From: a virus
Taxonomy: Duplodnaviria > Caudoviricetes
Reading direction: 5' to 3' (one strand)
DNA length: 64,000 nucleotides
IMG/VR virus record: IMGVR_UViG_3300025121_000014
Span: 1-64,000 of that record
The translations under genes and the position numbers were made by a program. The notes beneath the pieces were generated by a model. That model was not told the origin of the DNA and searched no databases. It worked only from the letters and a program-made list of their open reading frames with translations. Numbering within the stretch: position 1 is the first letter of the stretch; each line of letters opens with the position of its first letter. This document shows positions 4,514-53,934 of the stretch, in pieces.

Positions 4514-5014
4514 TTATCCTTTTTCTTCGGATTTTTCTTTATTTTTATATTTTAAATATATTTCTTTTAATTTTTGTTTTTTGCTTGATGGTCCACTAAC
4601 ATTTGTAATGGTATTTTTTATATAATTTATGTCAGCTCCTAAAATTAATAGATATTCAAATGCATCTGGATTTACTTCTTCAATTGCTTTTTCTAATGAA
4701 AAATTTAAATATTTTTGTCTTATAATTTCATCTTTCATTGGTAAGATATATATATCAATGAACATTTTTACATATTTCATATCGTGATGTAAAATTTCAA
4801 AAAATAGTTCATTTAAATTTCCTTTTTCCTTTATCATATTATAAAATTCTTCATCAGTTGGTAAAAAATGTTCAGGAACATCAAATTTTCTAATTGCACG
4901 AAATATATCTGCTGTTGATTTATTTAAAAATATTTTTTTAATTTCTTCATCAGATTTAGGTTTAAGATGACCTATTACATTACTTTCGTTTATGAATTGT
5001 TTAAAAGTTTTCAT
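4514..5014 (-). CDS. Capsid-targeting-sequence (CTS) module protein with ankyrin-like C-terminus
   Basis: MKTFKQFINE start, LKPKSDEEI module, LEKAI...FEYLLILGADIN ankyrin-like end. Confidence 0.55.
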   Translation of the reverse strand: MKTFKQFINESNVIGHLKPKSDEEIKKIFLNKSTADIFRAIRKFDVPEHFLPTDEEFYNMIKEKGNLNELFFEILHHDMKYVKMFIDIYILPMKDEIIRQKYLNFSLEKAIEEVNPDAFEYLLILGADINYIKNTITNVSGPSSKKQKLKEIYLKYKNKEKSEEKG

Positions 5015-5016
5015 AT

Positions 5017-5934
5017 ATGGTATATATTAAATTTATATATAGTATATTAAAAAATATATTTTTAAGTATGAAAAAAACAATTCACTTTTTTGATTTAGAT
5101 GGAACATTATGGAGAATAAAAACTAATGCTTGGATTATTGAAAAAGCAAGACCTGGAAAACCACTTTTTAAATTATCACATATAGAGTTAAATAATATAT
5201 TATCAGGTGCATATAAAAAAGATGATATTATATTAGAATTTAATGGTAATCAATATTGGATAAGTGAAAAAATGTTTAATAGAATTAAAAGAAAAAGAAA
5301 AGATATTGAAGAAAAAGATTTAGGAATTTCTTTTATTGAAAAAACTGATCCAGATTATTATAATGATATAATTATTTATAAAGAGAATGTTAGACATTTA
5401 ATAAATAATAACGATTATGATTTTGGTATTTTAAGTGCAAGATATAATGAAGATAACGATGCTAAGATATTAAAAAAATTAAGAGAAGAATTAGAGAATA
5501 TAGGAATACATATTGATAAATCATATTATGTATCTGAAACTTATAATCAATTAAATAATGATAGTATAGGATATAAAAAATCTGATGTATTATTAGAACA
5601 TTTAATCGGGTTTAAAATTTCAAAAGATAAGTTTATTCCTATTAAACAAGATAAATACGATACTGTATATTTTTATGATGATGAATATCAAAATATCAAT
5701 ATTGCAAATACAATTCAAGATATATTAGAAAATTATTTAAGAAATACTGATGATGAAGTTTATGATCGTATTATTAAACGAATAAAAAACAATAATTTAG
5801 TATTATTTAATAATTTAGTAAGTAGTAATAATATTAAAAAATATGAAACTACAAAAATAGAATTAATAGAACCTATAAAGTATCCTATAAGAATTGATGA
5901 AAAGAAAATATATAGATTTAAAGATTACAAATAA
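5017..5934 (+). CDS. HAD-superfamily phosphatase-like protein (likely start 5068)
   Basis: FFDLDGTLW motif I, ILSAR motif II, FYDD motif IV. Confidence 0.6.
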   Translation: MVYIKFIYSILKNIFLSMKKTIHFFDLDGTLWRIKTNAWIIEKARPGKPLFKLSHIELNNILSGAYKKDDIILEFNGNQYWISEKMFNRIKRKRKDIEEKDLGISFIEKTDPDYYNDIIIYKENVRHLINNNDYDFGILSARYNEDNDAKILKKLREELENIGIHIDKSYYVSETYNQLNNDSIGYKKSDVLLEHLIGFKISKDKFIPIKQDKYDTVYFYDDEYQNINIANTIQDILENYLRNTDDEVYDRIIKRIKNNNLVLFNNLVSSNNIKKYETTKIELIEPIKYPIRIDEKKIYRFKDYK

Positions 5935-7523
5935 TGAGTCAAATAGCACAAAATTTTGAGACAGTAGGTATATCTGATACAGCATCTGTATCTATTGATG
6001 TAGATGCAATGGTTAGAAAGGCTATGATTAAATTATTTGAATTGAAAGATGCAAATGGTAATCAAATGAATGAATATGATAATGCATATTTTGATGCAGG
6101 ATTGCCAACTACTGATGAACCAGGTATGCCATCTTTAACAAAAAGTTTTATTATATTTGAAACAGAAACATTAAGTTTTTTATTTCAGCAAGTATTATAT
6201 ATTTTAACTCCTATAAAAACAGCTTTAGAATTACCTCAATTATTAACAAATCCAAAAGCTCTTATAGAAAAAATAAAAGAAATTATAGATAATGTTAAAA
6301 AAATGATTGATGATGTAACTACTTTTTTAACAGATACTAAACAATGGTTCATAGATACATTATTAGGAGGTTTAGCCGATATTAATATTCCAATACCAGA
6401 GATAACCATAACTATACTTGGAGTTGATATAACATTACCTAAAATTGATAAGAAAGGTCTTTTTGATACAGATACATATAAAGAAAAATTAGACGGTAAA
6501 GCAGGTGAATTAAAAACAAAAATAACTGATTTAAAAAAAGAACTAAGTCAAATTAAAGATAAGGCTAATGAAAATATAAGCAAATTACAAGATAATGTAT
6601 TAGTATCTTTACAAGAATTAAAAACACAATTAAATGCAATATTATATCAAATTGTATATGAATATTATGAACTATCTTACCAATTACATGAAAAAATATT
6701 AGAAAAAGAAAATTTAGCTGTTATTTATATGAATAATAATAATATTGGATATATATCAACGGATATTGTAAATAGAACAAATGATATATTATTAATAAAA
6801 ACAGAATTAGATAATATCACAAATAAAGATGGATTAAAAATATTTAATGATACAATTGTAAGATTAATAGAAATACCATCTGATTTAACATCTATATTGA
6901 CTAATGAAATAGAATCATTAACTACGTTAATAACAAATAAAAATATAGTATTAGTTACAACAGAAATTGATGATACTATTGAAACTTTAAAAAATAGTAT
7001 AAGTGAAAAGTTAACTGAAATGATACAACCACAAGACGATTTAATTAAAAATCAAGAAGGTATAGACAAAATATTAGCATCTGTAAAAAATTTTACAGGT
7101 AATTTAACTTTAAGAAAAAAACAAATTGAAGATAAAATAAAAGAAACATATGATGAATTAGTAAATTTAAGTCCTGCTACAGCCTGGATACAAAAAATGA
7201 TAGATTTATTTTTAAATATAATAAAAGCACCAATAGATTTTATTATAGCATTAATAACTAAATTAATGGAAGGAGTAATAGAATTTTTAAAAGAATTACC
7301 ATTACCTACATTCACAAAATTTAAAGAATTTTTTTCTGATTTATTAGGGTTAGCAAATGTATCAAAAATGTCTGATTTTGTAAATAGTCTTTTAGAATCT
7401 TTAGCTCCATTGGCTAATCCGGATTTAATAGCAAAAATTTCTGAATTTTTACCAGATTTAATAGTTACAATAGGTGTTAAATTCATAACGTCAATAGTAG
7501 AACCATTACCGATTCCAATTTAA
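5934..7523 (+). CDS. Hypothetical coiled-coil protein, probably virion-associated
   Basis: 529-aa ORF, long heptad region flanked by related IP.P segments. Confidence 0.4.
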   Translation: MSQIAQNFETVGISDTASVSIDVDAMVRKAMIKLFELKDANGNQMNEYDNAYFDAGLPTTDEPGMPSLTKSFIIFETETLSFLFQQVLYILTPIKTALELPQLLTNPKALIEKIKEIIDNVKKMIDDVTTFLTDTKQWFIDTLLGGLADINIPIPEITITILGVDITLPKIDKKGLFDTDTYKEKLDGKAGELKTKITDLKKELSQIKDKANENISKLQDNVLVSLQELKTQLNAILYQIVYEYYELSYQLHEKILEKENLAVIYMNNNNIGYISTDIVNRTNDILLIKTELDNITNKDGLKIFNDTIVRLIEIPSDLTSILTNEIESLTTLITNKNIVLVTTEIDDTIETLKNSISEKLTEMIQPQDDLIKNQEGIDKILASVKNFTGNLTLRKKQIEDKIKETYDELVNLSPATAWIQKMIDLFLNIIKAPIDFIIALITKLMEGVIEFLKELPLPTFTKFKEFFSDLLGLANVSKMSDFVNSLLESLAPLANPDLIAKISEFLPDLIVTIGVKFITSIVEPLPIPI

Positions 7524-7837
7524 CCAATATCTTCTATTTTTTCTATTTCTGATATTTTTTTAACAGTTTCTAATTTCTTTTGATTATCTTCTGATTTAAG
7601 TTCAGATGATTTTTGTTTTTGTTGCATAAATAATACACTACCAAAAATAGTTGCAGAACCAGTAAAAAATGCACCCATTGCGCCCCAAGTTCCGGCATCA
7701 ATACCATCTCCTTTTATAGCACGTATTAAAATATATAATCCAACACAAAATAATACAAAACAAACAGTATAAATTATTGTTGTTACATTTTTTCTCATTG
7801 AACTCAAATTTCCAGAATTATCATGCATTGCGCCCAT
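7520..7837 (-). CDS. Holin-like two-TM membrane protein
   Basis: DNSGNLSSMR N-motif, two hydrophobic helices, charged C-tail. Confidence 0.5.
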   Translation of the reverse strand: MGAMHDNSGNLSSMRKNVTTIIYTVCFVLFCVGLYILIRAIKGDGIDAGTWGAMGAFFTGSATIFGSVLFMQQKQKSSELKSEDNQKKLETVKKISEIEKIEDIG

Positions 7838-7885
7838 TTTATTATATTTATTTTTTAATATATATTAAAAAATAAATATAATAAA

Positions 7886-8782
7886 ATGATAATTAAATAT
7901 AATCAATATGTAAATGAAGAGCTAAATCTTTTTGGTGCATTAAAAAATATGTTTGGTAAGTTATTACAAAACATATCAGATGAATTAAAAAAACCAGTAG
8001 AAGATTTAACTGCTAAACTTGCTAAATCTAAAAAAGAAGATATGAAAAAGATTATGACAGATTATTTAAAAATTCATAATGAAACATTAAATAAAGAATT
8101 AGCAAAAGTTACTACTTTACCAGATTTATATAAAATAATTAAAGATAATTTAAAAGCTATATATGCATCCATTAAAGCAGTTGATACATCATTAGGGGAT
8201 GGTAAATTTTCATTACAGAATATTTTTATAGATTCGAATGATAGAATTAAAAAATTATTTGATAAAGATGAAAAAAAATTTGAAGCAAATGTTAATACAT
8301 TTGCATATAATACATTAATAATGTTCGCTAAATCTAAGTATAATGAAAAAGAAATCAAAGAATTATTACCAGAAAAATTAATAAATGAAAGTGTTCTTAA
8401 TGAAATACAAAATCCTAATGTTCAAGTACAAACTAATCAATCAACAGGTAATCAAAAAGATAATCCTATTAAAAAAGATGAAGCTGAAATTAAAAATGTT
8501 CAACAAGATGAAAAAATAAAAATAATATCAGACCAAATAAAAAAATGGTTTAGTGACGCAATTTATAAAAAATTAAATATTAAATTAAAAACAGATACAA
8601 ACGATGTAAACCAAAAAGGACAAATTGCATTTAATACTAATAATATTACAGGTGCTAAAAAAATAATTAGCACAATTCAAACATTAGATAAGACTGAGTT
8701 TGCTGCTGTTAGAGATTTATTAATTAAATTAGGTAAAGGAGAAAAAAATGATTATGGTACTTTTGGTGATCCAGAAAATTAA
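7886..8782 (+). CDS. CTS-bearing hypothetical virion protein
   Basis: MIIKYNQYVNEE start; TAATATATA promoter at 7856-7864. Confidence 0.5.
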   Translation: MIIKYNQYVNEELNLFGALKNMFGKLLQNISDELKKPVEDLTAKLAKSKKEDMKKIMTDYLKIHNETLNKELAKVTTLPDLYKIIKDNLKAIYASIKAVDTSLGDGKFSLQNIFIDSNDRIKKLFDKDEKKFEANVNTFAYNTLIMFAKSKYNEKEIKELLPEKLINESVLNEIQNPNVQVQTNQSTGNQKDNPIKKDEAEIKNVQQDEKIKIISDQIKKWFSDAIYKKLNIKLKTDTNDVNQKGQIAFNTNNITGAKKIISTIQTLDKTEFAAVRDLLIKLGKGEKNDYGTFGDPEN

Positions 8783-17094: not shown

Positions 17095-17095
17095 T

Positions 17096-17461: not shown

Positions 17462-17917
17462 TTAATTTTTTATATTGTTTAATATATTTAATATTTTTTT
17501 TGATCTTAATTTTAATATATTAGTGTATTCTTTAAATGAATCTTCTTCAACTGGAATTGCATCAAACGTAATTAAATTTGTTAATATAGTATAACCATTT
17601 TCATCAACATTTCCAATTCCGCGTGGACGAAATACTATTGTATTTGTATTAAGTAAATCATTTAATATATTACCATTTGGTGTATTTAATATTTCTACTT
17701 CACCCATTAAATAATTATTTTTTAATTCTATATTTGTTATTAAATGGGATACCCTAGATAAAGATATATCCATTTCACCCATACCTAATTCACCATATAA
17801 TCTTCCATTATCTATTTTTTCTTTTAATTTATTAAAATCAATTGATTCTTTTGTATAAATCCTATTATTTAAATTTTTAAATCCAAATGGTATTAAATTA
17901 ACTTTTATCTTTTTCAT
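17462..17917 (-). CDS. RxxK-tagged prohead protease (gp21-like) paralog, predicted inactive
   Basis: NNRIY, LYGELG, VSHLIT, GEVEILNTPNG, RG.G and FDA present; GELxHP His and SSRG Ser replaced (GELGMG, FRPRG). Confidence 0.8.
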   Translation of the reverse strand: MKKIKVNLIPFGFKNLNNRIYTKESIDFNKLKEKIDNGRLYGELGMGEMDISLSRVSHLITNIELKNNYLMGEVEILNTPNGNILNDLLNTNTIVFRPRGIGNVDENGYTILTNLITFDAIPVEEDSFKEYTNILKLRSKKILNILNNIKN

Positions 17918-18266: not shown

Positions 18267-18291
18267 TTCTTATTTAATTATTTTTAATATT

Positions 18292-18307
18292 TGTTCCACG
18301 TGGAACA
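18292..18307. promoter_or_regulatory. parS-type palindrome
   Basis: Perfect intergenic TGTTCCACGTGGAACA; identical core at 55600-55615. Confidence 0.85.
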
Positions 18308-19420: not shown

Positions 19421-19523
19421 TTATTATATTATTCATTATTTTTTTAATCTTTTCCCTTCTGATATAATCATTATAACGAATAGATTTTCCTGTTTTCTTA
19501 CTAGTTATCCAATTTTCGTCCAT
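19401..19523 (-). CDS. 40-aa RxxK-tagged micro-protein (not in ORF track)
   Basis: MDENWITSKKTGKSIRYNDYIRREKIKKIMNNIINEKYCK; overlaps both neighbours in operon fashion. Confidence 0.5.
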   Translation of the reverse strand: MDENWITSKKTGKSIRYNDYIRREKIKKIMNNIINEKYCK

Positions 19524-19740
19524 TTATATAATTCATTATTTTTTTTATCTTTCTTTTTCTTAAATTGTGTATTTCATATTCACTATAACTTATATTATGT
19601 GATATACGTTCAGCAATATATTCTGAATAACTTATACCATGTGATATACGTTCAGCAAGATGTTCTGAATAACTTATATTTATATTATGTGATATATGTT
19701 CAGCAAGATATTCTGAACAACTTGTATTTATATTAATCAT
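19501..19740 (-). CDS. RxxK-tagged protein made of SYSEY[LI]AE repeats (scaffold-like)
   Basis: Four ISYSE(Y/H)(L/I)AE(R/H)ISH-type units, also visible as DNA repeats; ends LRKRKIKKI. Confidence 0.55.
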   Translation of the reverse strand: MININTSCSEYLAEHISHNINISYSEHLAERISHGISYSEYIAERISHNISYSEYEIHNLRKRKIKKIMNYINGRKLDN

Positions 19741-23314: not shown

Positions 23315-23650
23315 ATGAAAACATTTAAACAATTTAATGAAAGTATAAGAGATTTACTTAAAGGGAAATCAAAAGATGATATTGAAAATGTATTAAGTAA
23401 TATGGATATTCCTAGTAGATTAATTAATATTAGTAAGTATGATTTAGATACAGAATATATGCCAACAAAAAAAGAATTAGAAGAATATATTAAAACATTA
23501 ACAACACCCGGGAAAATGTCATACATTATAAATTACAAATTAGATAAAGAATTTTTACCAAGTAATGAAGAAATTAAAGAATACATTAAAAAATTTAGTA
23601 ATGACCAACAAATAGAATATATTATTGAAAATGAACTACACATTAAATAA
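23315..23650 (+). CDS. CTS/DLL-KS module protein with helical repeats
   Basis: MKTFKQFNESIRDLLKGKSKDDI; Y.L..E(Y/F)(M/L)P..EE repeats. Confidence 0.65.
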   Translation: MKTFKQFNESIRDLLKGKSKDDIENVLSNMDIPSRLINISKYDLDTEYMPTKKELEEYIKTLTTPGKMSYIINYKLDKEFLPSNEEIKEYIKKFSNDQQIEYIIENELHIK

Positions 23651-32881: not shown

Positions 32882-33688
32882 ATGATAATAAAGTTTAATG
32901 AATATATATTGGAAGCAAAATTAACAGAAGGTTATGATGATTATATACGTCAATTTAATAGTATATATTCTTTAATTAAAGACATTGGTGGTACAGTTAA
33001 TCCAATTGAGTTGAAAGCTAAAAAATCTTTTTTAAAAAAAGATATAGATGCTTTTATAGAAAGAATAACAGAAGATAATATATCATCGACTGATATAGAT
33101 AAAATTCAACAATATATTAAAGATAAAAAGAAATTACTACATAAAAAATTATTTAATTTATTTGAAAATTTAGATAATATTAAAAGAGATATTAAAAGAA
33201 AAAAATTAAGAAAAACACAAGAAAGATTTGTCGAAGATAATCCAATAATTAATGGATTAAATAAAATAGATACATTAGAAAGTTTTTATAATAACATAGA
33301 GACTTTATTAAAAGATAATAGTAAAACTGATGTTCTATTTTTCTTATATGGTTTATTAGCATACTTCAATAATAATTCATTAAGTCGTGTAGATTTATTT
33401 AGTTTTATTTCTATGCATGATGATGAAATGACAGGAAATCTTATTAGAAATTTGAATTGGGAAATGGCAACATGGGATGATAAAAAATATGACCAATGGC
33501 ATTATATTGGTGGAGTTATGAATCAATTATTTAGGGGAACTGATAAATTTACAGATACAGATTTAAAAGAAGAAAATCCATATACTGATAGAGAAAATGC
33601 TATTTATGAAATATCAGATGAATTCTATTCATATATAAAATCAGTCTTAGTAAAATTTGTGGAAACTGGACAATTTGATTTAATTTAA
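32882..33688 (+). CDS. CTS-bearing hypothetical protein
   Basis: MIIKFNEYILE start; late promoter at 32850-32858. Confidence 0.55.
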   Translation: MIIKFNEYILEAKLTEGYDDYIRQFNSIYSLIKDIGGTVNPIELKAKKSFLKKDIDAFIERITEDNISSTDIDKIQQYIKDKKKLLHKKLFNLFENLDNIKRDIKRKKLRKTQERFVEDNPIINGLNKIDTLESFYNNIETLLKDNSKTDVLFFLYGLLAYFNNNSLSRVDLFSFISMHDDEMTGNLIRNLNWEMATWDDKKYDQWHYIGGVMNQLFRGTDKFTDTDLKEENPYTDRENAIYEISDEFYSYIKSVLVKFVETGQFDLI

Positions 33689-35837: not shown

Positions 35838-38800
35838 ATGTTAGACTTTAAATTATTCGAAAATGTTGCTCAGGCTAAGTCTTTTTTAAGACAAAATAAT
35901 ATTCCTGAAACCGATTCATTATACCAATTAGTAAGAAAATCATTTAAAGGTAAAGAAGGTTATGTCGGTTGGATTACTAAATTAATATATCGTATGTTAG
36001 CTTTTGAATCTAACGGAAAATATTTGGCACTTGATAAAAATTCTTTGATTGATAGTACAGTTAATAGTAGTAATATTATTAATAATACTTTAAATCGCGC
36101 TAAAAGACAGTTTGATATATTACTTGATTATTTATCTGAAAAAGAAGTTATAGATAAATTAGAAAAACCTGTAATTGAATATGAAACATTCGAACAATTT
36201 GTTGATGCCTTTATAATTGCTGAAGATAAACTTAAAGCTAAAAGAATTTATGATGAATTTCCTGCTGAGCAAAAGAAATTAATTAATATAAACATTGATT
36301 ATAAATTATTAAAACAATTACATGATAAAAAAAATAAAAAAATATTTATTAAAAAAATATCATCGTATCATGATAGAAAAAATTTAATATCTAGAATAAC
36401 TGCATTTATTAATGAAGTAATCGATGATAATTTTAATAATAAAATAAAATATTTAAAAAATAATAAATTAGAAATTGTTCACCAGAGTGAAAAAGATAAT
36501 ATTATTATTGCTAAAATATTTAACTACCAACAATGTTCAATAGTAGGTGCTGAAACATCTTGGTGTATAGCAAGAGATTCTAATACTTATAGTAATTATA
36601 TAAAGAACGATTTAGATAGACAATATATTATTTATTTAACTGATAAACCACCAACAGATAATGAAAGTATTATTGGTGTTACTTTTAAATTAAATTCTTA
36701 TTATACTGCACATTATAAAGATGATGCATATTTAACTGAATCAAAACTTAATGAATTGTTTGAACAAAGAAAAGTTGATAAAAAAATATTTAAAATTAAA
36801 AAAAGTGAAATAAATGAACATAATATTAAAAATGTTAATCCATATGGTTTATTTAAATTAGGATTTACAAAAGATGAAATTATAAATAAAAAAGGTAAAG
36901 AATATTTAACTGGAATGCAAATTTTATTATTAAAAGAAATGGGGTTTACAAAAGATGAAATTAAAGAATATTCTCATTTTAGAGATCCATTAGAAGATAT
37001 AAAAAAAGTTGGATTTACAGAAGAAGAAATAGAAGAGTTGGTACCTAATTTAAAACAAAAAAATATTGAAGAATTTATAGAAGCTAAATTATCAAAAGAA
37101 TTTATAATGAAATATATAAATTTCGATACTTTATATGTTCATAGTTTATTACATATGTTTACAAAAGAAGAAATTTTAAATAATAAACAAGTATATGTTG
37201 AATCAGAATTAGATAGTTTTAATCAAGAACAAATAAAAAAATATGATTTAAATAATAAAGTAAGATTAGATGGTTATACAATTAGTGTAGATGAATTAAA
37301 AAAATATATTAAAACTGGTGAAATTTATAAAATTATAAATAGATTAGAACCAAAATCAATATATTTATTTAAATTAATTAATGCTGGTTTAAATTTAAAC
37401 GATTTACAACAAATAAAGAATCTTTATGAAAAATTAATTGATATTGATCGAGATTTTTATAAAAAACATTGTTATAAACCAAAAGAAGAAACGAAAACGA
37501 ACGAATATAGAATATATAGTTCGAATACATTTTATTTAGATCATACTATAAAAAAATTAAAAATATATAATATTACACCAGATGATATATCATTAGAAAA
37601 ATTAGAATATGTGTTAAATGGAATATCACATTTGGCGGTTCCAAGAGTTGTTAACTTTTTAATAGAACAAGAATATTCTTATACTGAACAAGAAATTAAA
37701 AATTTTTTACTTAAAATTATACATATTAATGTTGATAAAAAAGAACTATTTAAAAGTGGCATAGAAGCTGGTATAAATTTTTATCCAGAATTAATGATAT
37801 TTTATCTTGAAAATAACGATGTAATTGATCCACGTGAATTTGATACCGCTAAAAATCTTCTAAGCGAAAAATACCCAGATAAATGGGAAATTATTGAAGA
37901 TAAACAAAAAAAAGCTATATTTATTAAACATACATTACGTCAAGCAGGATATTTGGCTATAGGTTCACAATATGATGATTTTGGTGATTGGGATACTGAA
38001 CGCAAAGATTATGCATTAAACTTAAATTGGAAAAATGAAATGAAAGGTGAAAATGAATATTTAGCATATGTAGCAACAATAATAATTTTAGCATTAAATG
38101 ATGATTGGGAAAGTTTATATAAATTACCACAATGGGATTGGGGAGATAATACAACTAATGTTGGTGATAGTTTAGATAATTATAAAGTATATTTATCTTA
38201 TTTAGTTAGAACTATATTAGGTGCAAATGTTACAAAATCATATTCAAAATTTAGAGAAACAGACGAATTAACAAAAAATCAAATAAGTAAAATATATACT
38301 TGGATAATGAATTATGTATGGCCAACTATTGAAAATAAAGAACAACAAGAACCAGAATTACAATTAGCTTATTATCTTCTTGATAAAAAAAGATGGAATG
38401 ATTATTTACAAAGAACTAAAAAGAAAAAAATGAATTATTTTCGTAAAGATAGTTATTGGATATCATACTCTGATAAAAAAATCGGAACAAAAGAAATAAA
38501 AATGACATATAGATTTTATAACATTGCACAAGTTGTAGAATATTTATGTAATGATAGAAAATATATAAATTCACCATATTATAAAAGTATTCCTAAAACA
38601 AATATGGAATTAGATAAATTATTATTTGAATTCACAGATGGAATAACAATGGGTAAAAAAGAATTAAAAAAAACAATATCAACATTATATCGAATAAATA
38701 TTTGGAATGATAATAAAGATAGAACAAAAATAATAAATGATATATTTAATAAATATATTCCTATAATAAATGAAAGTATAATGACCAATTATGATAACTT

Positions 38801-38846
38801 TATATATAATTTAAAATTTAATAATCCTAAGAATGTTAGACTTTAA
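35838..38846 (+). CDS. Large CTS-bearing protein with SWCI-motif domain and helical repeats
   Basis: MLDFKLFE start, TSWCIAR, YYTAHY..D, LGFTK(D/E)EI repeats. Confidence 0.55.
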   Translation: MLDFKLFENVAQAKSFLRQNNIPETDSLYQLVRKSFKGKEGYVGWITKLIYRMLAFESNGKYLALDKNSLIDSTVNSSNIINNTLNRAKRQFDILLDYLSEKEVIDKLEKPVIEYETFEQFVDAFIIAEDKLKAKRIYDEFPAEQKKLININIDYKLLKQLHDKKNKKIFIKKISSYHDRKNLISRITAFINEVIDDNFNNKIKYLKNNKLEIVHQSEKDNIIIAKIFNYQQCSIVGAETSWCIARDSNTYSNYIKNDLDRQYIIYLTDKPPTDNESIIGVTFKLNSYYTAHYKDDAYLTESKLNELFEQRKVDKKIFKIKKSEINEHNIKNVNPYGLFKLGFTKDEIINKKGKEYLTGMQILLLKEMGFTKDEIKEYSHFRDPLEDIKKVGFTEEEIEELVPNLKQKNIEEFIEAKLSKEFIMKYINFDTLYVHSLLHMFTKEEILNNKQVYVESELDSFNQEQIKKYDLNNKVRLDGYTISVDELKKYIKTGEIYKIINRLEPKSIYLFKLINAGLNLNDLQQIKNLYEKLIDIDRDFYKKHCYKPKEETKTNEYRIYSSNTFYLDHTIKKLKIYNITPDDISLEKLEYVLNGISHLAVPRVVNFLIEQEYSYTEQEIKNFLLKIIHINVDKKELFKSGIEAGINFYPELMIFYLENNDVIDPREFDTAKNLLSEKYPDKWEIIEDKQKKAIFIKHTLRQAGYLAIGSQYDDFGDWDTERKDYALNLNWKNEMKGENEYLAYVATIIILALNDDWESLYKLPQWDWGDNTTNVGDSLDNYKVYLSYLVRTILGANVTKSYSKFRETDELTKNQISKIYTWIMNYVWPTIENKEQQEPELQLAYYLLDKKRWNDYLQRTKKKKMNYFRKDSYWISYSDKKIGTKEIKMTYRFYNIAQVVEYLCNDRKYINSPYYKSIPKTNMELDKLLFEFTDGITMGKKELKKTISTLYRINIWNDNKDRTKIINDIFNKYIPIINESIMTNYDNFIYNLKFNNPKNVRL

Positions 38847-43732: not shown

Positions 43733-44212
43733 TTAAAATGTTGATGAGTCTTCTAAATCACTATCAGAATCTGGTAATGTTTTAGCTGTTGCTTCCTCAC
43801 TTGTTTCTGAGTCTAATTCAGAAAATAATTCAAGAATTTTATCTTCGTTTATATCTTTTACATTAACATCTTTTCCTAGTGTTCTATAAAGATTTCCATC
43901 GCTATCATATTTTTTAACTTTAATGTAGCAATCTGTTAATTGGTCTTGTGCTACATCTTTTAATGAAATAATTATATATACTTGATAATGAAATTGATCA
44001 TCATCAAAATCAAACACTAAATTTTTATCTGGTTCATTTAAATTACTAATATTAATATCCCCTAGTGTAGCTCCATTAAGTGATAATGATCCATTTATAA
44101 ACCAATCATTAATATTTTTCGTTAATTCTTTAAAGAAAGATTGAATCATATAATCAGGTGTTTCAATATATTTCTCATTAAGGAATTCAGAATATTTTTT
44201 TATATTTTTCAT
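43733..44212 (-). CDS. CTS-bearing hypothetical protein
   Basis: MKNIKKYSEFLNE start. Confidence 0.6.
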   Translation of the reverse strand: MKNIKKYSEFLNEKYIETPDYMIQSFFKELTKNINDWFINGSLSLNGATLGDINISNLNEPDKNLVFDFDDDQFHYQVYIIISLKDVAQDQLTDCYIKVKKYDSDGNLYRTLGKDVNVKDINEDKILELFSELDSETSEEATAKTLPDSDSDLEDSSTF

Positions 44213-44519: not shown

Positions 44520-44885
44520 ATGAAAAATATAAAACAATTTGAACAATTTATTAATGATAATTTTAATAACCCGTTTAAAAGAAAAAACATAATTAGAATA
44601 ATTGAAAATCCACCAAAAGGTTCAATATATTCTGAACCACGAGAAAACGAGTTAGAATTTATTAAGTTAACTAATTTAGATAATGGTAGATGGAAAATAG
44701 AATTTAAAGATTATACTATGGAATATGGTTGGGGATTTTTTATTTATAATCAATTAGATAATGAAATTGAAGATATTGAAAGATATGGCTATGAACAACA
44801 ACAAATACCACATTATTTAGAACCAACAGAAGATACAATTATAGATATTAAAAAGATTATTCAAAAAAATAAAAAGAAGGTATGA
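44520..44885 (+). CDS. CTS-bearing hypothetical protein
   Basis: MKNIKQFEQFIND start. Confidence 0.55.
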   Translation: MKNIKQFEQFINDNFNNPFKRKNIIRIIENPPKGSIYSEPRENELEFIKLTNLDNGRWKIEFKDYTMEYGWGFFIYNQLDNEIEDIERYGYEQQQIPHYLEPTEDTIIDIKKIIQKNKKKV

Positions 44886-45352
44886 AAAATATAAAAGGTT
44901 TTAATCAATTTTTAAATGAAGATGGTTCCACAACTGCTGTTGTAGGATCAGGAACTGCCGTAAGTGGTCCATCTTTTTCAAGTGTATCTGTTGCAGGAGT
45001 TAGCATAGACGGTGGGCATTCAACACAAGGGAGTAGTGGTGTATCTACATTAGGCAATGTATCTGGTATGGGAGATGTTGTTTCTGCTCAACCATCTGAT
45101 ACACCAGGTGATGTTGCTGGTAGTACTAAAGGATCAGGTGATATTGGACAAACTTTAAAACCATTTACTAAATCATTTCCTAATACAAGAAAGAAGAAAA
45201 AAGAAAAAAAGAAAAAAACTAATTCTGAAAAAGGAGCACAAATAGATAAATTTTACACTTCTAAATATTCAGAAAAATATATAAAATCTGGAAATGTAAT
45301 TCAAGATTGGAAAACATTTAATAAAGAAAAAAATGGTAATAAAAAAGTTTAA
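44882..45352 (+). CDS. CTS-bearing Gly/Ser-rich, probably disordered head protein
   Basis: MKNIKGFNQFLNEDG; G/S/T-rich; basic stretch; C-terminal IQDWKTF. Confidence 0.6.
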   Translation: MKNIKGFNQFLNEDGSTTAVVGSGTAVSGPSFSSVSVAGVSIDGGHSTQGSSGVSTLGNVSGMGDVVSAQPSDTPGDVAGSTKGSGDIGQTLKPFTKSFPNTRKKKKEKKKKTNSEKGAQIDKFYTSKYSEKYIKSGNVIQDWKTFNKEKNGNKKV

Positions 45353-46562
45353 TATTTTTATAAATGAAAATATAACTAGTTTACTTAAAGGAAAATCTAA
45401 TGATGAAATGATTAAAGCATTAGAAGGTTTATCAAATAATAAGAAAATAGAATATATAATTGCATATCAATTAGATTATGATTTATTACCAAGAGATAAA
45501 AATGGTAGATGTATTTATCATAATAATGAAGATGAATATGGTGCTTATAGTTGTAATCTAACTGGTTATGGGATAAAAAAATTACCTGATAATTTAACAG
45601 TTCATGGTAATCTGATTTGTAATAATAACCCAGAATTAACTGAATTGCCTAAAGGATTAATCGTTAATGGTGATATGTATTTTTTTGATTATCCTAAAGA
45701 ATTAAAATTACCACATGATATACAATTAAGTGGAAAATATTATCATAGTATTAAAGGTAAAAAATTAATAATAGAAAATATAAAAGATTTACTTAAAGGT
45801 AAATCAGATGATGAAATTGAAAAAAAATTAAAAGTAAGTTCTGACGAAAATATAGCTCGTGGTGTGTTTAGTTATAATTTACCACTTAAATATTTACCTA
45901 AAAATTATGATAAATTAGTAAAAGATATTATTAAAGAAATAAAAGAACTTGTTAAAGAATATGGTGGTAATATTACTGTATATGATTTGGGTGTAGAAAG
46001 TATTGATTATGAAGGTGAAACACATTATTATGCAATATCTGTATTAACTACTGATTATGTATGGGTAGAGGAATATCTATTAACTGATTTTACTAAAAAT
46101 AGAACATATGAAGCACCATATGAAGAATTAAATTATTATCAATTAAGTGAAATAAAAGAAACAATAGAATGGGCAATTGGATCAGGAAATTTAGAACATA
46201 AATTATATGAAAGTGTTAAAGATTTATTAAAAGCAAAATCATATGAAGATGTTGAAAAACAATTAATTGGTTTATCGGATTTAGAAAGAATTATAAAAAT
46301 AGAAGAACACGATTTACCAAAAGAATATTTACCAAATAATTATAACGATATTAAAAAAATACTTATAAATGGTATTAAAAGCAAATTAAAACAGTTTAAT
46401 AATGTTTTAAATTTTTTAAATGATTTTGATTTACAAGACGAATTATATTTATACCCATATATTTTATACATCTTGTCAAAGAAAACCACCAAATCTTCAG
46501 TTTGGTGGATGAATTTGACTTCCAAAAACGGAAAAAACAGACTTTTAACTTTTAATATATAA
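45333..46562 (+). CDS. CTS-bearing modular polyprotein (three DLL-KS modules), 3' end interrupted by IS
   Basis: ENITSLLKGKS, ENIKDLLKGKS, ESVKDLLKAKS; LRR-like block; last ~29 codons are read through the IS left end. Confidence 0.7.
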   Translation: MVIKKFNIFINENITSLLKGKSNDEMIKALEGLSNNKKIEYIIAYQLDYDLLPRDKNGRCIYHNNEDEYGAYSCNLTGYGIKKLPDNLTVHGNLICNNNPELTELPKGLIVNGDMYFFDYPKELKLPHDIQLSGKYYHSIKGKKLIIENIKDLLKGKSDDEIEKKLKVSSDENIARGVFSYNLPLKYLPKNYDKLVKDIIKEIKELVKEYGGNITVYDLGVESIDYEGETHYYAISVLTTDYVWVEEYLLTDFTKNRTYEAPYEELNYYQLSEIKETIEWAIGSGNLEHKLYESVKDLLKAKSYEDVEKQLIGLSDLERIIKIEEHDLPKEYLPNNYNDIKKILINGIKSKLKQFNNVLNFLNDFDLQDELYLYPYILYILSKKTTKSSVWWMNLTSKNGKNRLLTFNI

Positions 46563-47763: not shown

Positions 47764-48308
47764 CTACTATAAGTAAAATTGTTAAAATAAAACAATATGG
47801 TTTAGATAAAAAATATATGCCATCAAAAGATGAAATTAAAAAAGAATTTGATAATTGGGGTAATAGTATACATAGTACAGATTTAAAAATTTATCATATA
47901 ATTATATTAGAATTACCATTTGATTTATTACCTATAAGAAAAGAACCGAGTAAATTAAAAACAATTTATAAAGGGAATAAAAATAAAATTATTTGTAGTA
48001 CAGAGTTAGATGTAAGTTATAAAAATATAACTAAATTGCCAGATAATTTAGTTATTTATGGTGATTTGAATTGTAGTAGTAATCAATTAACTGAATTACC
48101 AAAAGGATTAGAAGTATTTGGAAATTTAAAAGCAAGTTATAATAATTTAACCGAATTTCCAGATGATACAATAGTACACGGATATTTAGATATAACTGGT
48201 ACTAAAATAACTAAAATACCTAAAACAGCAGTAATTTGGGAAGCTATATATTCTGATTATAAGTTAAATTATTTTAACCCAAAATCTGATGAAGAACATA
48301 TATTATAG
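47751..48308 (+). pseudogene. Headless remainder of a module/LRR-like gene downstream of the IS
   Basis: Begins mid-module (KIVKIKQYGLDKKYMPSKDEI); ATG lies inside the IS right end; LPDNL...LTELPKGL repeats. Confidence 0.55.
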
Positions 48309-48311
48309 AAT

Positions 48312-49016
48312 ATGAAAACATTTAAACAATTTATTAATGAAAATGTAAAAGATTTACTAACAGGAAAATCTGATGATGTTATTAGTAAAGAATTAGATAA
48401 ATTAAAAATACAAGATAAATTAAGATATATTCAAAAATATGATTTATCTGATAAATTTATGCCATCTGATAAGGAAATTAAAAATTATTTAAATAAATTC
48501 AGCACATATCAAATTATTGATAAAATACATTATTTAAATTTACCTAAAAAATTTATGCCAACTGATGAAGAAATTAAAAAATTAAAACCTTCGAAATTAT
48601 TAGAATTTATATCAAGAGGATGTATTTCTAAAAAATTTGAACCTACAAAAAAAGATTTAAATACATTTATGGAAAATATACCTAATGATATTAAAAATAT
48701 ATTGCAAATATATATTGATGCTGACGATAATTATGAATCAACAGGATTTTTTTTAAATTTTATTGATCAATTTACTACTTGTAAAAATTATTATAAATAT
48801 ATAATAGATATTGTTAATACTCACATAGAAGATTATTCTGACCATGAACCTAATCCATATTCACATATTAAATCTGATCAAGAAAAACTAAATTTTATGG
48901 ATTCTGATTTACTAATAGAATTTGTTGGTAATGGTATTTTTTATATTGATAGTAACACATATAATCATTTTATAGAAGATTTGAAAAAAACTAGTTGGAA
49001 TGATATAGTGGAATAG
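48312..49016 (+). CDS. CTS/DLL-KS module protein
   Basis: MKTFKQFINENVKDLLTGKSDD. Confidence 0.65.
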   Translation: MKTFKQFINENVKDLLTGKSDDVISKELDKLKIQDKLRYIQKYDLSDKFMPSDKEIKNYLNKFSTYQIIDKIHYLNLPKKFMPTDEEIKKLKPSKLLEFISRGCISKKFEPTKKDLNTFMENIPNDIKNILQIYIDADDNYESTGFFLNFIDQFTTCKNYYKYIIDIVNTHIEDYSDHEPNPYSHIKSDQEKLNFMDSDLLIEFVGNGIFYIDSNTYNHFIEDLKKTSWNDIVE

Positions 49017-49095: not shown

Positions 49096-49539
49096 ATGAT
49101 TTATAAATTTAGTGAATTTGAAAGATTAAATGAGGAAACAAAACCAAGTAAAATATATAAAAATGTTATGTTTGATGATTACGAAATTAGAATTGGTCGT
49201 AATAGTCAGGTCAATGATATATTAACATTTGAATATGCTAATGATAATGATTTATGGTTTCATGTTAGTGGATACCCTGGTTCACATGTTGTAATAAAAG
49301 TTAAGGAAAATCAAGAAACACCAAACAAAGTTATTTTAGAAGCTTCTAGATTAGCTATTTATAATTCTAAGGCAAAAGGAAAAGGATTAGTTAAAGTAGT
49401 CTATACAGAAAGAAAAAACGTTACTAAGACCGATAAACATAATCCAGGGCAAGTTAGTGTTGATTATAGTAAATCAAAATTTATAAAAATAGAAGTTTTA
49501 AAAAAATATAATATAAATGAAACATATAAAAATATTTAA
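49096..49539 (+). CDS. NFACT-R (DUF814) RNA-binding domain protein with CTS
   Basis: IGRNSQVNDILT, DLWFHV...PGSHVV, A...S, V.YT..KNV.K, PGQV. Confidence 0.85.
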   Translation: MIYKFSEFERLNEETKPSKIYKNVMFDDYEIRIGRNSQVNDILTFEYANDNDLWFHVSGYPGSHVVIKVKENQETPNKVILEASRLAIYNSKAKGKGLVKVVYTERKNVTKTDKHNPGQVSVDYSKSKFIKIEVLKKYNINETYKNI

Positions 49540-50050
49540 AGAATTTTTTGATAAAGAAAAATTAGATAAAATACCAAATCAATATTTAAATACAATTAAT
49601 GAAAATGTAAAAAATGTTCTTCTACCTAAATCAGATGATGAAATTAAAAAAGAATTATCTAAATTAGATGTATACGATAGAATAGAAGTTATTACTAAAA
49701 ATAATTTATCACCAGAATATTTACCATCAAAAGAAGAAATTGCAAAAGCACATGAAGAAAAATATAATTCATATAGCGATAAATGGTCAAAAGGATATTT
49801 TAATACTGAAACACTTAAAGTTAAAACACCATATTGGAATATTTATATTCCAAAATGTAAAAGTTGTGATGAAGTTACCGAATTAAAAAATTGTTTTATA
49901 GACAGACAAATGATAGGAAATGTTTATCAAACATTATGTAATTGTAGTAAATGTAATAAATATATATTACTTGACGAAGACAAATATGATGATTTAATGA
50001 GATATATAGAAAATAATAAAGAAGTAAAAGGAAATAATGATAAACTATAA
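49517..50050 (+). CDS. CTS/module protein with Zn-ribbon cargo
   Basis: ENVKNVLLPKSDDEI; CKSC...CNCSKC. Confidence 0.6.
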   Translation: MKHIKIFKEFFDKEKLDKIPNQYLNTINENVKNVLLPKSDDEIKKELSKLDVYDRIEVITKNNLSPEYLPSKEEIAKAHEEKYNSYSDKWSKGYFNTETLKVKTPYWNIYIPKCKSCDEVTELKNCFIDRQMIGNVYQTLCNCSKCNKYILLDEDKYDDLMRYIENNKEVKGNNDKL

Positions 50051-50084: not shown

Positions 50085-51140
50085 ATGAATACATTTAAAC
50101 AATTTAATGAAAATATAAGAGATGTTCTTTTACCTAAAAGTAAAGAAGAAATTGGTAAAGCATTACAAAGATTTACAAATAATGATGATTTAATAAGATA
50201 TATAATAAAATATAAATTGCCATATGAATTTTTACCTAGAAATGAAGAAGGTAGATGTGTTATTAATAAAAATCTTTATTATGCTTCTTCAAATATTGAA
50301 ATATTACCGGATAATTTTACTGTTAATGGTATGTTAGATATATCATATTCTTCAATAAAAGAATTACCAGATGGTTTAATAGTTAGAGATGATTTATGGT
50401 GTTTAGATACAGATATAACTAAATTAAAAGATGATACAATAATTGGAGGTAAAACATTCTTTAAAACAACTTATAAAGTATATGAAAGTGTAAAAAATGT
50501 TCTTCTACCTAAATCAATTGATAAAATTAAAGATGCAATGAAAGGTAAAAATATTTATTCTAAAATATATACAATTAAAAATACACCAGATTTAGAAAAA
50601 ATTTTTAGATATCCATCTAAAAAAAAATTATATGATGTAATAAATAAACCATTTGAAAATTATGAACAAGTTTATAAAGATATAATAGATGATAAAAAAA
50701 TCAAATTTAGTAAAGTAAGAATGAATGATGTAGAATATTTTCAGTTATATCAATTAATAGTTGATTATATTAAAGTAATATGTAACACCGAAAAAAAAAT
50801 ATTTGAATTTGCACCTAATACACATGTTATTAGAGTTTTTGGTGTAATTTTAAATCATTTGGAATCTGAATATATATTTAAACCTGTTTATAAGGAAAAC
50901 GGATTTGATATTTTTAAATTAGCAAAAAAAATTTTTAATAGAGATTTATTATTGCAAAACGGTCATATAGAAGTAAATGATGCCTATAAAAAATATACAA
51001 AAAGTCAAATTAGAATAGATATTAATTCAATTAACTATAAATTTAGTGATATAACTTCACCATATTGGTCAAATTTACATGGTTGGGAGATAGAAAGAAA
51101 ATATGTTAAGAAACACGAAAGAAAATTCGGTAAAACATAA
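50085..51140 (+). CDS. CTS-bearing two-module polyprotein with LRR-like block
   Basis: ENIRDVLLPKS and ESVKNVLLPKS. Confidence 0.65.
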   Translation: MNTFKQFNENIRDVLLPKSKEEIGKALQRFTNNDDLIRYIIKYKLPYEFLPRNEEGRCVINKNLYYASSNIEILPDNFTVNGMLDISYSSIKELPDGLIVRDDLWCLDTDITKLKDDTIIGGKTFFKTTYKVYESVKNVLLPKSIDKIKDAMKGKNIYSKIYTIKNTPDLEKIFRYPSKKKLYDVINKPFENYEQVYKDIIDDKKIKFSKVRMNDVEYFQLYQLIVDYIKVICNTEKKIFEFAPNTHVIRVFGVILNHLESEYIFKPVYKENGFDIFKLAKKIFNRDLLLQNGHIEVNDAYKKYTKSQIRIDINSINYKFSDITSPYWSNLHGWEIERKYVKKHERKFGKT

Positions 51141-51172: not shown

Positions 51173-51565
51173 ATGAAAAATATCAAAAACTTTGACAAAT
51201 TTATAAGTGAAAGTATTACTAATTTATTAACGTCTAAACCAAACGATGAAATCATTAAAAAACCTATAGGATATATGACATATAGAATATTAAAATTCGT
51301 TAGTGAACATCCAGAAGGTATTAGACGTAAAGATTTAATAAAAATGATATTTGATATAAAATACGAAGACACTTTAATAACTTATGATACAAGTAAACAT
51401 TCTAGGTTTTATAGTAGTTTCTTTTCTAATACTAATTTATTAAATAAAACAGGTAAAGGAAATAATGCTAAATGGTATATAAACGCAAATGGTTTAGATA
51501 AATTAAAATATTATGAAAAAAAATTTAAAGATTATGATATTGAAAAAATTAAAAAAATAATTTAA
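51173..51565 (+). CDS. CTS/module protein with winged-helix-like cargo
   Basis: ESITNLLTSKP; RILKFVSEHPEGIRRKDLIKMIF. Confidence 0.55.
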   Translation: MKNIKNFDKFISESITNLLTSKPNDEIIKKPIGYMTYRILKFVSEHPEGIRRKDLIKMIFDIKYEDTLITYDTSKHSRFYSSFFSNTNLLNKTGKGNNAKWYINANGLDKLKYYEKKFKDYDIEKIKKII

Positions 51566-51570: not shown

Positions 51571-53079
51571 ATGTTACTTAAAAAATATAATGATTTTATG
51601 ATTGACAAATTACTTTTAGAATCATTAAATGAATTTAAATTTATTTTATCAGGTCGTTTAAAAAATATATTAAAAAATATAAATAGTGAAATATCTGATG
51701 CATTACTAGCATTACATAATGATGATGATTATAAAAGTAAAAAAACGTTTATAGATATTAATGAAAGAGATGATGAAACTTTAACATTAATTCAAGCAAA
51801 TAAAGCTACTGAAATATTAAAAATAGATAATCAAGAATATTTAGATAATAATCCTTATTCAATACAGCGATATAAAAAATTAAAATCTGATCATGATGTA
51901 TATAATAAACATAGAATATCCGTAAGAGTAGGTCGTTTAATTAATTATTTATTTCCTAATAGATTTCCTAGTGCTTCACCAACAGATATTACCAAAAAAT
52001 CAAAAGATATTGAAAATTTTGTTAGAATGTATAAATCTATTGTTTTTCAAAACGAAAGATTTAAATTATTAGATTTGGTAAATGGTGATAATATATCATA
52101 CTGGTATGATTGTAATAATTATGATAGTAGTGATTCTGGATCATTAGGTAGTTCTTGTATGGCAAGTGTATATGAAGAATATTTTGAAATATATGTTAAT
52201 AATCCAAATACTATACAATTATTAATATTATATTCTGATAATTCTAAATCATATATATCTGGAAGAGCCTTAGTTTGGACATTATATGAACCAGAAAATG
52301 GTAGAAAATATATGGATAGAATTTATACAAATGATAGTTCAGATGAACAAGTATTTATTGATTATGCTAAAGAAAATGGTTGGTTATTTAGATCATCACA
52401 AGGTTGGAATAATACTGATATTGTTGATTCATTAACAAATCAAACTATTAATACGAATTTAATGGTTCGTACAACTAAAGACGATTATAGTTATTATCCT
52501 TGGATGGATACTATGTGTTATTATAGTCCGGAACTTGGAATTTTATCTAATAAATCAAATAATTTACGACTATATCTGCAATCACAAGATGGTTCAAGTT
52601 CAACAAATAGTGATTATTATGAAAATGAAGATGATACTTATATATTTAGTAAATATGAAGGGGAAGATATACTTCGAAGAACCGCAGTATATTGTTATTA
52701 TGGAGATGATTGGGTTCATACATCAGTAGCCAAAAGAGTATTTAATGCGGGATTAGTAACAAATCCAGATGGGACTAATAGAATTTATTCTATTCCTGTA
52801 CATCCTGATGTTGTTAGATCATATATTCCTGATATTAATTATGATAAACATTTTCCAAAGAAAAAATGTATTTGGTCAATTTATTTAAATGCTTGGATTT
52901 TTAAAGATAGTAAAGTAAAAATATATCTAGATGTAAATAGAGAAAAATTTGGATATGACCACAAAAAACGTAAAGATATAAATTTTGGAAAAGTAGGTAG
53001 AGTTCATTATGTAATTGAATTACTTGAAAAAAATGAAAATGATCAATGGAAATTAAAAAAAGAAAATGAAAAAGTTTAA
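51571..53079 (+). CDS. CTS-bearing conserved phage protein (SCM...GRALVW...MDRIY family)
   Basis: LLESLNE; GSLGSSCM, GRALVW, YMDRIYT, YPWMDT. Confidence 0.6.
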   Translation: MLLKKYNDFMIDKLLLESLNEFKFILSGRLKNILKNINSEISDALLALHNDDDYKSKKTFIDINERDDETLTLIQANKATEILKIDNQEYLDNNPYSIQRYKKLKSDHDVYNKHRISVRVGRLINYLFPNRFPSASPTDITKKSKDIENFVRMYKSIVFQNERFKLLDLVNGDNISYWYDCNNYDSSDSGSLGSSCMASVYEEYFEIYVNNPNTIQLLILYSDNSKSYISGRALVWTLYEPENGRKYMDRIYTNDSSDEQVFIDYAKENGWLFRSSQGWNNTDIVDSLTNQTINTNLMVRTTKDDYSYYPWMDTMCYYSPELGILSNKSNNLRLYLQSQDGSSSTNSDYYENEDDTYIFSKYEGEDILRRTAVYCYYGDDWVHTSVAKRVFNAGLVTNPDGTNRIYSIPVHPDVVRSYIPDINYDKHFPKKKCIWSIYLNAWIFKDSKVKIYLDVNREKFGYDHKKRKDINFGKVGRVHYVIELLEKNENDQWKLKKENEKV

Positions 53080-53098
53080 ATAATTTATAAATGAAAAT
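53066..53098 (+). pseudogene. Decayed copy of the CTS-coding cassette
   Basis: ATGAAAAAGTTTAAATAATTTATAAATGAAAAT vs ATGAAAAAGTTTAAACAATTCATAAATGAAAAT at 53404 (CAA to TAA). Confidence 0.65.
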
Positions 53099-53140
53099 TT
53101 AAAATATAATAAGTATAACTTAAAAATAAATGAAAAATAA

Positions 53141-53395
53141 ATGAAAAGCATAAAAAAATTTAATAATTTCTTAAATGAAGGATTAAGCACAAGTAATAAA
53201 TTAGAAATAAAATATGTTAATATACATGGTGAAGAAATGATATTAAAATATGATGGAGTAGAAAGTACATTTTTTCATAGTGACATAACTGACATACCTA
53301 TTCCCTTACGATCTACTACTTTAGATGATTTTATTTTAAATAATGAAGAACAAAAAGTAATTGATTGTTTTTTATCTTTAGTGGATATAAATTAA
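53141..53395 (+). CDS. CTS-bearing small protein
   Basis: MKSIKKFNNFLNEG. Confidence 0.6.
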   Translation: MKSIKKFNNFLNEGLSTSNKLEIKYVNIHGEEMILKYDGVESTFFHSDITDIPIPLRSTTLDDFILNNEEQKVIDCFLSLVDIN

Positions 53396-53403
53396 AAAAG
53401 AAA

Positions 53404-53934
53404 ATGAAAAAGTTTAAACAATTCATAAATGAAAATATTAAAGATTTACTTAAAGGTAAAACAGAAGAAGAAATAAATAAAAATATAATTAATTTAAGTT
53501 CTTATGAAAAATTAAAATTAGCAAAAAAATATGAATTTAAATTATCAGATGTCGATGAAAAAGATGCTATTAAATCTGCGCTTATATATAATCCTGAAGA
53601 ATTAATTTTAGATTTAAAATATGATTATGATGATTTATCTAAAATAGTTTCTGATGAAGAAATTAAAAAAGGATTAAAAAGTATTACAAAACGTTTATTT
53701 AACATTATGAAAGGTAATAACAGAGAAAATGCATTTGAAGAATTAGAAAAAGTAGTATTTTATCTTTTTAAAAATGGATATCTATATGATAACACAGATA
53801 CACTTGGTAATTTATGGTTTAAACATAAAACATATGATAAATATAAAGGTGGTAGCACTACTTGGAATGGATATAATACATTAAGTGATGCGATAGATTA
53901 TGTTACTAGGATGCAAAAATTAAATAATTCATAA
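53404..53934 (+). CDS. CTS/DLL-KS module protein (true start 53404; ORF track 53365)
   Basis: MKKFKQFINENIKDLLKGKTEEEI. Confidence 0.65.
   Translation: MKKFKQFINENIKDLLKGKTEEEINKNIINLSSYEKLKLAKKYEFKLSDVDEKDAIKSALIYNPEELILDLKYDYDDLSKIVSDEEIKKGLKSITKRLFNIMKGNNRENAFEELEKVVFYLFKNGYLYDNTDTLGNLWFKHKTYDKYKGGSTTWNGYNTLSDAIDYVTRMQKLNNS

Follow-up and report, generated by a model that had tools for sequence, protein, structure and literature searches.

The first 64,000 nucleotides of the IMG/VR record IMGVR_UViG_3300025121_000014, a virus assigned to Caudoviricetes (Duplodnaviria), encode 82 genes, a sizeable subset of which start with a short peptide that ends in Glu, such as MKTFKQFINE. This stretch, analyzed at its full length, is called the window below. 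The peptide is nearly the same as the capsid targeting sequence (CTS) found on internal proteins (IPs) of phage T4, and the comparisons described here make it probable that about 15 window genes, representing about eight cargo families, carry a T4-type leader that targets their products to the head and can be removed by a protease. A preliminary description of this DNA had listed eighteen genes with such a start; all eighteen coordinates coincide with real starts of open reading frames (ORFs) that encode the peptides quoted. The nearest complete relative used throughout is LR756501.1, a 735-kb uncultured phage of the Mahaphage clade (PMC7162821).

Anchored on its Glu, the leader has the core [MI]-K-x-[FY]-x-x-[FY]-[ILV]-x-E and comes in three forms: MKTFKQFINE; MKNIKxFxxFLNE, with three extra residues; and MIIK[YF]NxY[VI]xE. 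The ending is of the [IL]-x-E type, which is the cleavage motif of gp21, the Glu being preceded two residues earlier by I, L, or V. How unusual is such a string at the beginning of a protein? A strict regular expression, K.[FY]..[FY][ILV].E, required to start within residues 1-6, matches the N-termini of nine of the 82 genes and none of the 18,326 internal positions (Fisher p = 5.3e-15). If the expression allows any residue at its last position, that residue is Glu in 11 of 15 N-terminal and one of 23 internal matches, and a degenerate DNA pattern for MKTFKQFINE (<=3 mismatches) finds five sites in the window vs 0.00 expected from 100 shuffles. Two further genes carry MIIK[YF]N.Y[VI].E variants, four depart by one change, and three match weakly (Table 1). 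Similar strings had also been pointed out near the C-termini of some proteins; these are best explained by chance, as the three quoted examples sit 1, 10, and 14 residues from the protein ends and a loose motif scores 3/2050 in the last 25 residues vs 50/15948 in the interior.

The signal resides in the peptide. Two window copies of the decapeptide differ by four synonymous and no non-synonymous codon changes, and in IMG/VR this decapeptide is found in thirteen distinct DNA versions; thus, selection acts on the peptide, not on the DNA.

Table 1. Genes with leaders and related features of the window (genes are named in the text by their left-hand coordinate; those on the minus strand start at the right-hand one; asterisk, stop codon)
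Coordinates	Strand	Length (aa)	N-terminal peptide	Match	Other features
4514..5014	-	166	MKTFKQFINE	strict	family A
7886..8782	+	298	MIIKYNQYVNE	MIIK variant	fifth best window match to 9-residue scaffold-repeat matrix
17462..17917	-	151			inactive gp21 prohead protease paralog
19501..19740	-	79			4-5 copies of the scaffold 14-aa repeat (SYSEY[IL]AE...)
21634..23301	+	555	MKTFKEFINE	strict	family A; module starts again at aa 174 and 319, each after x-x-E; two LRR-like blocks
23315..23650	+	111	MKTFKQFNE	one change (one residue shorter)	minimal family A; leader, then three 32-aa helical hairpins
32882..33688	+	268	MIIKFNEYILE	MIIK variant	best non-scaffold window match to scaffold-repeat matrix
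35838..38846	+	1002	MLDFKLFENV	weak	doubtful member
43733..44212	-	159	MKNIKKYSEFLNE	strict	acidic; homolog in LR756501
44520..44885	+	121	MKNIKQFEQFIND	one change (Asp replacing Glu)	
44882..45352	+	156	MKNIKGFNQFLNE	strict	Gly/Ser-rich stretch after leader; basic tail
45333..46562	+	409	MVIKKFNIFINE	strict	family A; internal module starts at aa 149 and 294
47817..48308	+			no leader	family A LRR-like paralog
48312..49016	+	234	MKTFKQFINE	strict (exact)	family A
49096..49539	+	147	MIYKFSEFERLNE	one change (two residues longer)	NFACT-R; leader outside folded domain
49517..50050	+	177	MKHIKIFKEFFDK	weak	family A; tag-like YLNTINE, then module start, aa 23-30; Cys-rich C-terminus
50085..51140	+	351	MNTFKQFNE	one change (one residue shorter)	family A; internal module start at aa 135
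51173..51565	+	130	MKNIKNFDKFISE	strict	among family A paralogs
51571..53079	+	502	MLLKKYNDFMIDK	weak	LR756501 homolog starts MGVINYQQYLIKE
53066..53095	+		MKKFK*FINE		decayed leader copy with in-frame stop; one of the five DNA-pattern matches
53141..53395	+	84	MKSIKKFNNFLNE	strict	
53404..53934	+	176	MKKFKQFINE	strict	family A

Cargos of the leader in the window and beyond

Within the window, the same leader sits on about eight unrelated families. The largest, family A, comprises the ten genes so marked in Table 1, which share 60 to >200 residues by BLASTP. Its members are laid out as a leader, then 32-aa helical hairpins, then leucine-rich repeat (LRR)-like blocks, and in the longer ones the cassette start recurs internally about every 145 residues. 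A profile of the first 70 residues, run against 1.84 billion representatives, matches 561 clusters at E <= 1e-3; the matches mostly begin at residue 1-7, a single protein can contain up to 12 matched stretches, and Glu is the sole invariant column of the alignment. Glu also precedes the internal module starts in 45 of 47 cases. In the predicted structure of the 111-aa member, three confident hairpins follow from residue 20; a Foldseek search with the 32-aa hairpin model gave no match in the PDB at E <= 0.001. Ankyrin repeats are present in 43 of 104 relatives of the family. The decayed leader copy at 53066 is a relic of gene turnover.

Other cargos are less populous. Homologs of the NFACT-R protein form 81 clusters; the leader, in one length or another, is found in most of them and is absent from three (P0197, P0200, P0201) that are among the most distant. 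The AlphaFold model of this protein, made from 59 sequences, has a predicted local distance difference test (pLDDT) score <50 for residues 1-13 and >90 for the domain. Gene 32882 has a single homolog cluster (67% identical), in which the leader is kept. The window cargos span 84-555 aa and isoelectric points (pI) of 4.2-9.8, and Pfam and PHROGs return no match for most tagged proteins.

Is the leader equally mobile outside the window? A scan of IMG/VR with back-translated MKTFKQFINE recovered the exact peptide in 27 contigs (29-40% G+C), at the ORF start in all of them; directly after the Glu the sequences diverge completely into unrelated cargos. T4 core genes lie within the fetched flanks of 22 of these 27 loci, and the two longest contigs encode Peptidase_S77 (132 and 125 bits). 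At five loci, the tagged gene is directly 3' of gp23 in a gp20-gp21-gp22-gp23 cluster, with bodies that differ between contigs (78, 135, and 195 aa); a variable tagged gene in this position is the behavior expected of internal-protein genes. The 78-aa protein had no tblastn match in cultured phages.

A 95-aa basic protein provides a case in which one cargo occurs with and without the leader. T4-like contigs encode it with the leader; the homologous proteins of T7-like podophages (Eistla gp45, HTVC168P gp31, and S-RIP1) start with MPAKK... or MACGKK... and have no leader. Cyanomyoviruses carry this module at the C-terminal end of larger proteins with virion or structural annotations, where it is preceded by VNE|G, VSE|G, or QNE|S. 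In these carriers, among them P-SSM2 gp114 (GU071092.1 107920-108735), S-P4 GC0119, and S-SCSM1_29, the C-terminal module is conserved, basic, and about 85 aa long; judged by their sequences, the proteins look like polyproteins. In cyanophage S-SCSM1, a related module bears a virion-protein annotation, and the virion proteome of this phage comprises 45 proteins by mass spectrometry (PMC9602691); ORF29 is not confirmed individually in the supplement of that paper.

The T4 targeting sequence and the scaffold repeat

In the T4 record, IPII and IPIII start with MKTYQEFIAE, IPI with MKTFKEFTST..., and gp61.1 with MKTFKEFIKE; MKTFKEFINE of gene 21634 is identical to the gp61.1 start at 9/10 positions and to the IPI start at 7/7. 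The likeness to the T4 CTS, first proposed in the preliminary description, is real and quantitative, and the comparison ties the leader to T4-type head modules. MKTYQEFIAE has been reported to target internal as well as foreign proteins into heads and to the T4 scaffold core (PMC8442874; PMC3012670, both citing Mullaney and Black 1996) and to be removed by gp21 (PMC8442874; PMC3012670; PMC5694885). Because the window leader is near-identical, the tagged genes probably encode head-packaged proteins.

The strict expression was also applied to other genomes. It finds three N-terminal (IPII, IPIII, and gp61.1) and one internal match in T4, two and none in a complete T4-like IMG/VR contig, and 18 and 12 in LR756501 (1008 genes). 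PTm1, a cultured AT-rich jumbo phage (30% G+C, 300 genes) that has a Peptidase_S77 protease and a different scaffold repeat, served as a control and yielded no N-terminal and three internal matches; this hints that the number of leaders may vary together with the presence of Peptidase_S77 and the type of scaffold repeat.

With T4 IPs, the window genes share a leader of ~10 residues at the extreme N-terminus, the same aromatic/aliphatic spacing, and the [IL]-x-E end, with IPI sharing MKTFKEF exactly; in both, the leader is borne by unrelated, fast-evolving cargo. The differences are equally clear: ~15 genes are tagged in 64 kb vs three in T4; the predicted window cargos are larger and mostly not basic; family A has a ~17-residue leader, 32-aa hairpins, and an internally repeated cassette; and the host and phage clade of the window are far from T4.

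A second T4 protein enters the comparison. T4 gp61.1 is a 54-aa hypothetical protein encoded beside primase gene 61 (NC_000866 18966-19130, minus strand). It shares with window gene 44882 a Gly/Ser-rich stretch after the leader, and the make-up of 44882 resembles both gp61.1 and a set of 60-67-aa MKTFKQFINE proteins. The latter are found on T4-like IMG/VR loci with a gp61 primase homolog (L003, L007, L023, and L026); at L003, the only one of these loci that was mapped, the primase homolog lies a few kb from the tagged gene. By its sequence, gp61.1 may be an unrecognized T4 internal protein.

Head machinery of the T4 type is found in the clade. Three adjacent LR756501 genes code, in this order, for a gp20-like portal, for a protein of 807 aa, and for a gp23-like capsid protein. 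The second of these proteins begins with a domain that can be aligned with T4 gp21 and in which the conserved His (GEFDHP) and Ser (FVSSRA) motifs are intact; the rest of it is scaffold-like and contains about 13 tandem 14-residue repeats. Among 1608 homologs found for this protease-scaffold fusion, 120 have a median of 14 repeats with the consensus [NS]-I-x-Y-S-E-Y-[IL]-A-E-N-L-D-K, which resembles YQEFIAE of the T4 tag. A 9-residue log-odds matrix built from the scaffold repeats alone ranks the N-termini of IPII and IPIII first and second among 49,469 positions in T4. The gp23 stretch FLTE/AEIGG, which we take to be the gp23 maturation cleavage site, is fifth. In the window, the matrix finds the repeats of ORF 19501 first, followed by the leaders of 32882, 7886, and 43733, and a 14-residue substitution-matrix profile places eight tagged N-termini in the top 28 of 17,752 positions. 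These rankings lend moderate support to the idea that the leader mimics one scaffold repeat, or that both may have been shaped by recognition by the same protease.

Two proteins related to this machinery are encoded in the window. ORF 19501 matches the LR756501 protease-scaffold protein at 1e-31 (phmmer), and the gp21 paralog at 17462, counterpart of a 178-aa LR756501 protein, has the catalytic His and Ser positions replaced. Both belong to an operon of small genes at 15890-21556 on the minus strand.

Two known systems are instructive here. In giant phages of the phiKZ/SPN3US type, many internal head proteins are cut by a gp21-related protease after x-x-E, form paralog families with conserved N-termini, and coexist with a diverged protease paralog; in contrast to the short, T4-like window leader, their propeptides are mostly >100 residues and have an A/S/G-x-E motif (PMC5694885). 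In the Mahaphage-type protease-scaffold fusions, I-x-Y-S-E-Y-I-A-E matches YQEFIAE, IIKYNQYVNE, and IIKFNEYILE, and ORF 19501 consists of such 14-aa repeats; the fusion repeats are internal and tandem in a scaffold, whereas the window leaders are single N-terminal copies on cargo. A literature search found no paper on these peptides or on a CTS in huge phages, and neither internal proteins nor a prohead protease come up in the huge-phage paper (PMC7162821).

Head targeting and its alternatives

The leader is probably of the same kind and origin as the CTS of T4 internal proteins. By analogy with T4, we infer targeting, cleavage, retention in the virion, and delivery to the host: during prohead assembly, the amphipathic leader would recruit its protein to the scaffold core; a prohead protease of the gp21 type (Peptidase_S77) would cut after the Glu; and the cargo, a set of LRR-like repeat proteins, the NFACT-R protein, and several small proteins without an assigned fold, would remain in the head alongside the DNA. 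Whether the cargos are in fact retained and injected is evenly balanced.

If the leader works as in T4, proteins carried in the heads of uncultivated huge phages, and probably delivered together with the DNA, could be listed from sequence alone; apart from that, this class of proteins comes to light only when the virions of cultured phages are analyzed by proteomics. The T4 loading signal would then be conserved from T4 via marine T4-like phages to the largest known phages, with tagging on a larger scale than in T4, and would seem to work by mimicking the scaffold repeat. Hundreds of ankyrin, LRR, and other cargo families would become candidate early host-takeover or anti-defense proteins, and the peptide might serve as a portable packaging tag.

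Several observations weigh against head targeting, or against its proposed extent. (i) The number of eighteen tagged genes shrinks on inspection: fifteen stand (nine strict and six close), three are weak, and the count is inflated by paralogy; since a single family accounts for ten paralogous genes, the number of independent cargo families comes to about eight instead of eighteen. (ii) The cargo domains named in the preliminary description fare unevenly. NFACT-R is the only one that passes Pfam (66.7 bits); LRRs are visible but fall below Pfam cut-offs; ankyrin is not detected in any of the window's own genes, appearing solely in the family A relatives; and the winged helix-turn-helix (wHTH) and Zn-ribbon calls are putative, made from sequence patterns. 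(iii) The cargos are mostly not small and basic as IPI-III are, and phmmer of the T4 proteome against the window finds no match to IPI, IPII, or IPIII; therefore, the genes are filed as carriers of a CTS-type leader, not as IP homologs. (iv) The 64 kb of the window, to which the search was confined, yielded no gene for an active gp21-type protease, a portal, or a capsid protein. (v) MKTFKQFINE and the MKNIK form score poorly on the strict 9-residue scaffold matrix. (vi) T4 gp61.1, the closest T4 match, belongs to a replication gene cluster and is not known to be a virion or packaged protein.

Family A raises further doubts about cleavage. Its leader is extended to about 17 residues, and the Glu and the residues that follow are conserved within a longer helix; in the model of the 111-aa member, the leader helix (residues 4-14) is of lower confidence and spans the putative cut site. 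Upstream of the internal module starts, the third residue back is Thr in as many cases as it is Ile, Leu, or Val; thus, the conserved Glu could be structural rather than a cleavage site.

Nor does gene expression timing help. The motif TTAATATATA has 24 sites in the window vs 8.5 expected (e.g., 5021-5030, 7855-7864, 21618-21627, 55670-55679, and 62214-62223), and most copies placed on the gene map are intergenic, 10-40 nt upstream of a start codon and in the orientation of the gene. Its sequence and placement suggest a promoter-like element common to tagged, fiber-like, and other genes. It was considered as evidence of timing and dropped: tagged, fiber-like, and unrelated genes are all preceded by it, and an element upstream of tagged and untagged genes alike carries no timing information.

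How far can head targeting be extended? In the boldest version, the leader would be a single copy of the 14-residue scaffold repeat, through which the cargo slots into the repeat array, to be freed by the cut that dismantles the scaffold; each megaphage genome would hold dozens of recombining effectors of the ankyrin, LRR, and other kinds, including multi-module polyproteins cut at module junctions, all predictable from sequence. This elaboration is tentative and, as a whole, rather doubtful.

Would tagged proteins survive in the head at all? T4 gp22, gp67, and gp68 are chopped up and expelled during maturation, and the leader could mark prohead-core proteins that are mostly assembly or scaffold accessories, degraded and expelled in the same way and not effectors, with multi-module family A as sacrificial core material. 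Such a role would fit the resemblance of the leader to a scaffold repeat unit, the helical, repetitive, and charged make-up of family A with x-x-E ahead of its module starts, and the scaffold-repeat mini-protein of the window. Yet the cargos include folded domains (NFACT-R, LRR-like blocks, and ankyrin in the relatives), tagged proteins have 0.6-4.0 [ILVM]-x-E sites per 100 residues, values that lie on both sides of the 2.0 found as background, and the T4 proteins with precisely this type of leader are retained and injected; degradation of most tagged proteins is considered unlikely.

Slightly less likely again is an N-terminal helix that has nothing to do with capsids: a peptide for docking to another machine of the phage, a degron, a signal for chaperones, or no more than the opening helix of protein families that are widespread in phages. 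The leader on gp61.1 and its counterparts beside primase, in replication gene clusters, and the longer leader of family A, which is predicted to be helical, would fit such a role. Set against this are the reported targeting of proteins into heads by MKTYQEFIAE of T4 (PMC8442874; PMC3012670), the leader on variable genes directly after gp23, the podophage homologs that have the same cargo and no leader, and the AlphaFold model in which the leader is unstructured beside the NFACT-R domain.

Finally, no residues cost less than K, N, I, F, and E when G+C is 20%, and ten of the genes are paralogs, but neither extreme AT content, nor a translation start signal at the nucleotide level, nor recent duplication accounts for the lack of internal matches, the lack of N-terminal matches in PTm1 at 30% G+C, the synonymous variation under an unchanged peptide, the exact peptide in contigs of 29-40% G+C, and the leader on non-homologous proteins; a compositional or nucleotide-level origin is excluded in practice.

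Surrounding genes

The window is very AT-rich (about 20-25% G+C), and no tRNA genes were found in its 64 kb. It encodes a 1229-aa fused Mre11-Rad50 protein whose best match is in LR756501.1 (41% identity), and phmmer finds matches in LR756501 for 26 window proteins. Groundwater metagenome contigs encode proteins identical to those of the window (assemblies ERZ909576, ERZ4902915, and ERZ28563774, and a piece of only 1.5 kb in ERZ909591); the longest contig encoding window proteins measures 232,944 bp.

Two minus-strand genes, 40138-41037 and 14614-15711, are without the leader: one encodes a protein that starts with MKRGLVISGGGVKGSFAGG, in which a patatin-like glycine motif was recognized by eye only, and the other an M16-family peptidase-like protein (Pfam Peptidase_M16 and M16_C). 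Three large paralogs at 55703-57100, 57144-58661, and 59847-61565, 48% identical over 340 aa and with weak Ig-like matches, probably mark the start of a fiber gene block.

Three genes are of the TnpB/OrfB_IS605 type (23672-24862 and 34477-35739 on the minus strand, and 46592-47758 on the plus strand); two of them share 51% identity, and one splits the tagged-gene cluster. The 420-aa product of 34477-35739, with OrfB_IS605 and Cas12f1-like TNB domains, is encoded next to a CRISPR-like array at 33696-34346, in which at least ten copies of a 36-nt repeat alternate with 30-nt spacers at a period of 66; together, the array and this protein are candidates for a miniature type V CRISPR-Cas system carried by a huge phage.

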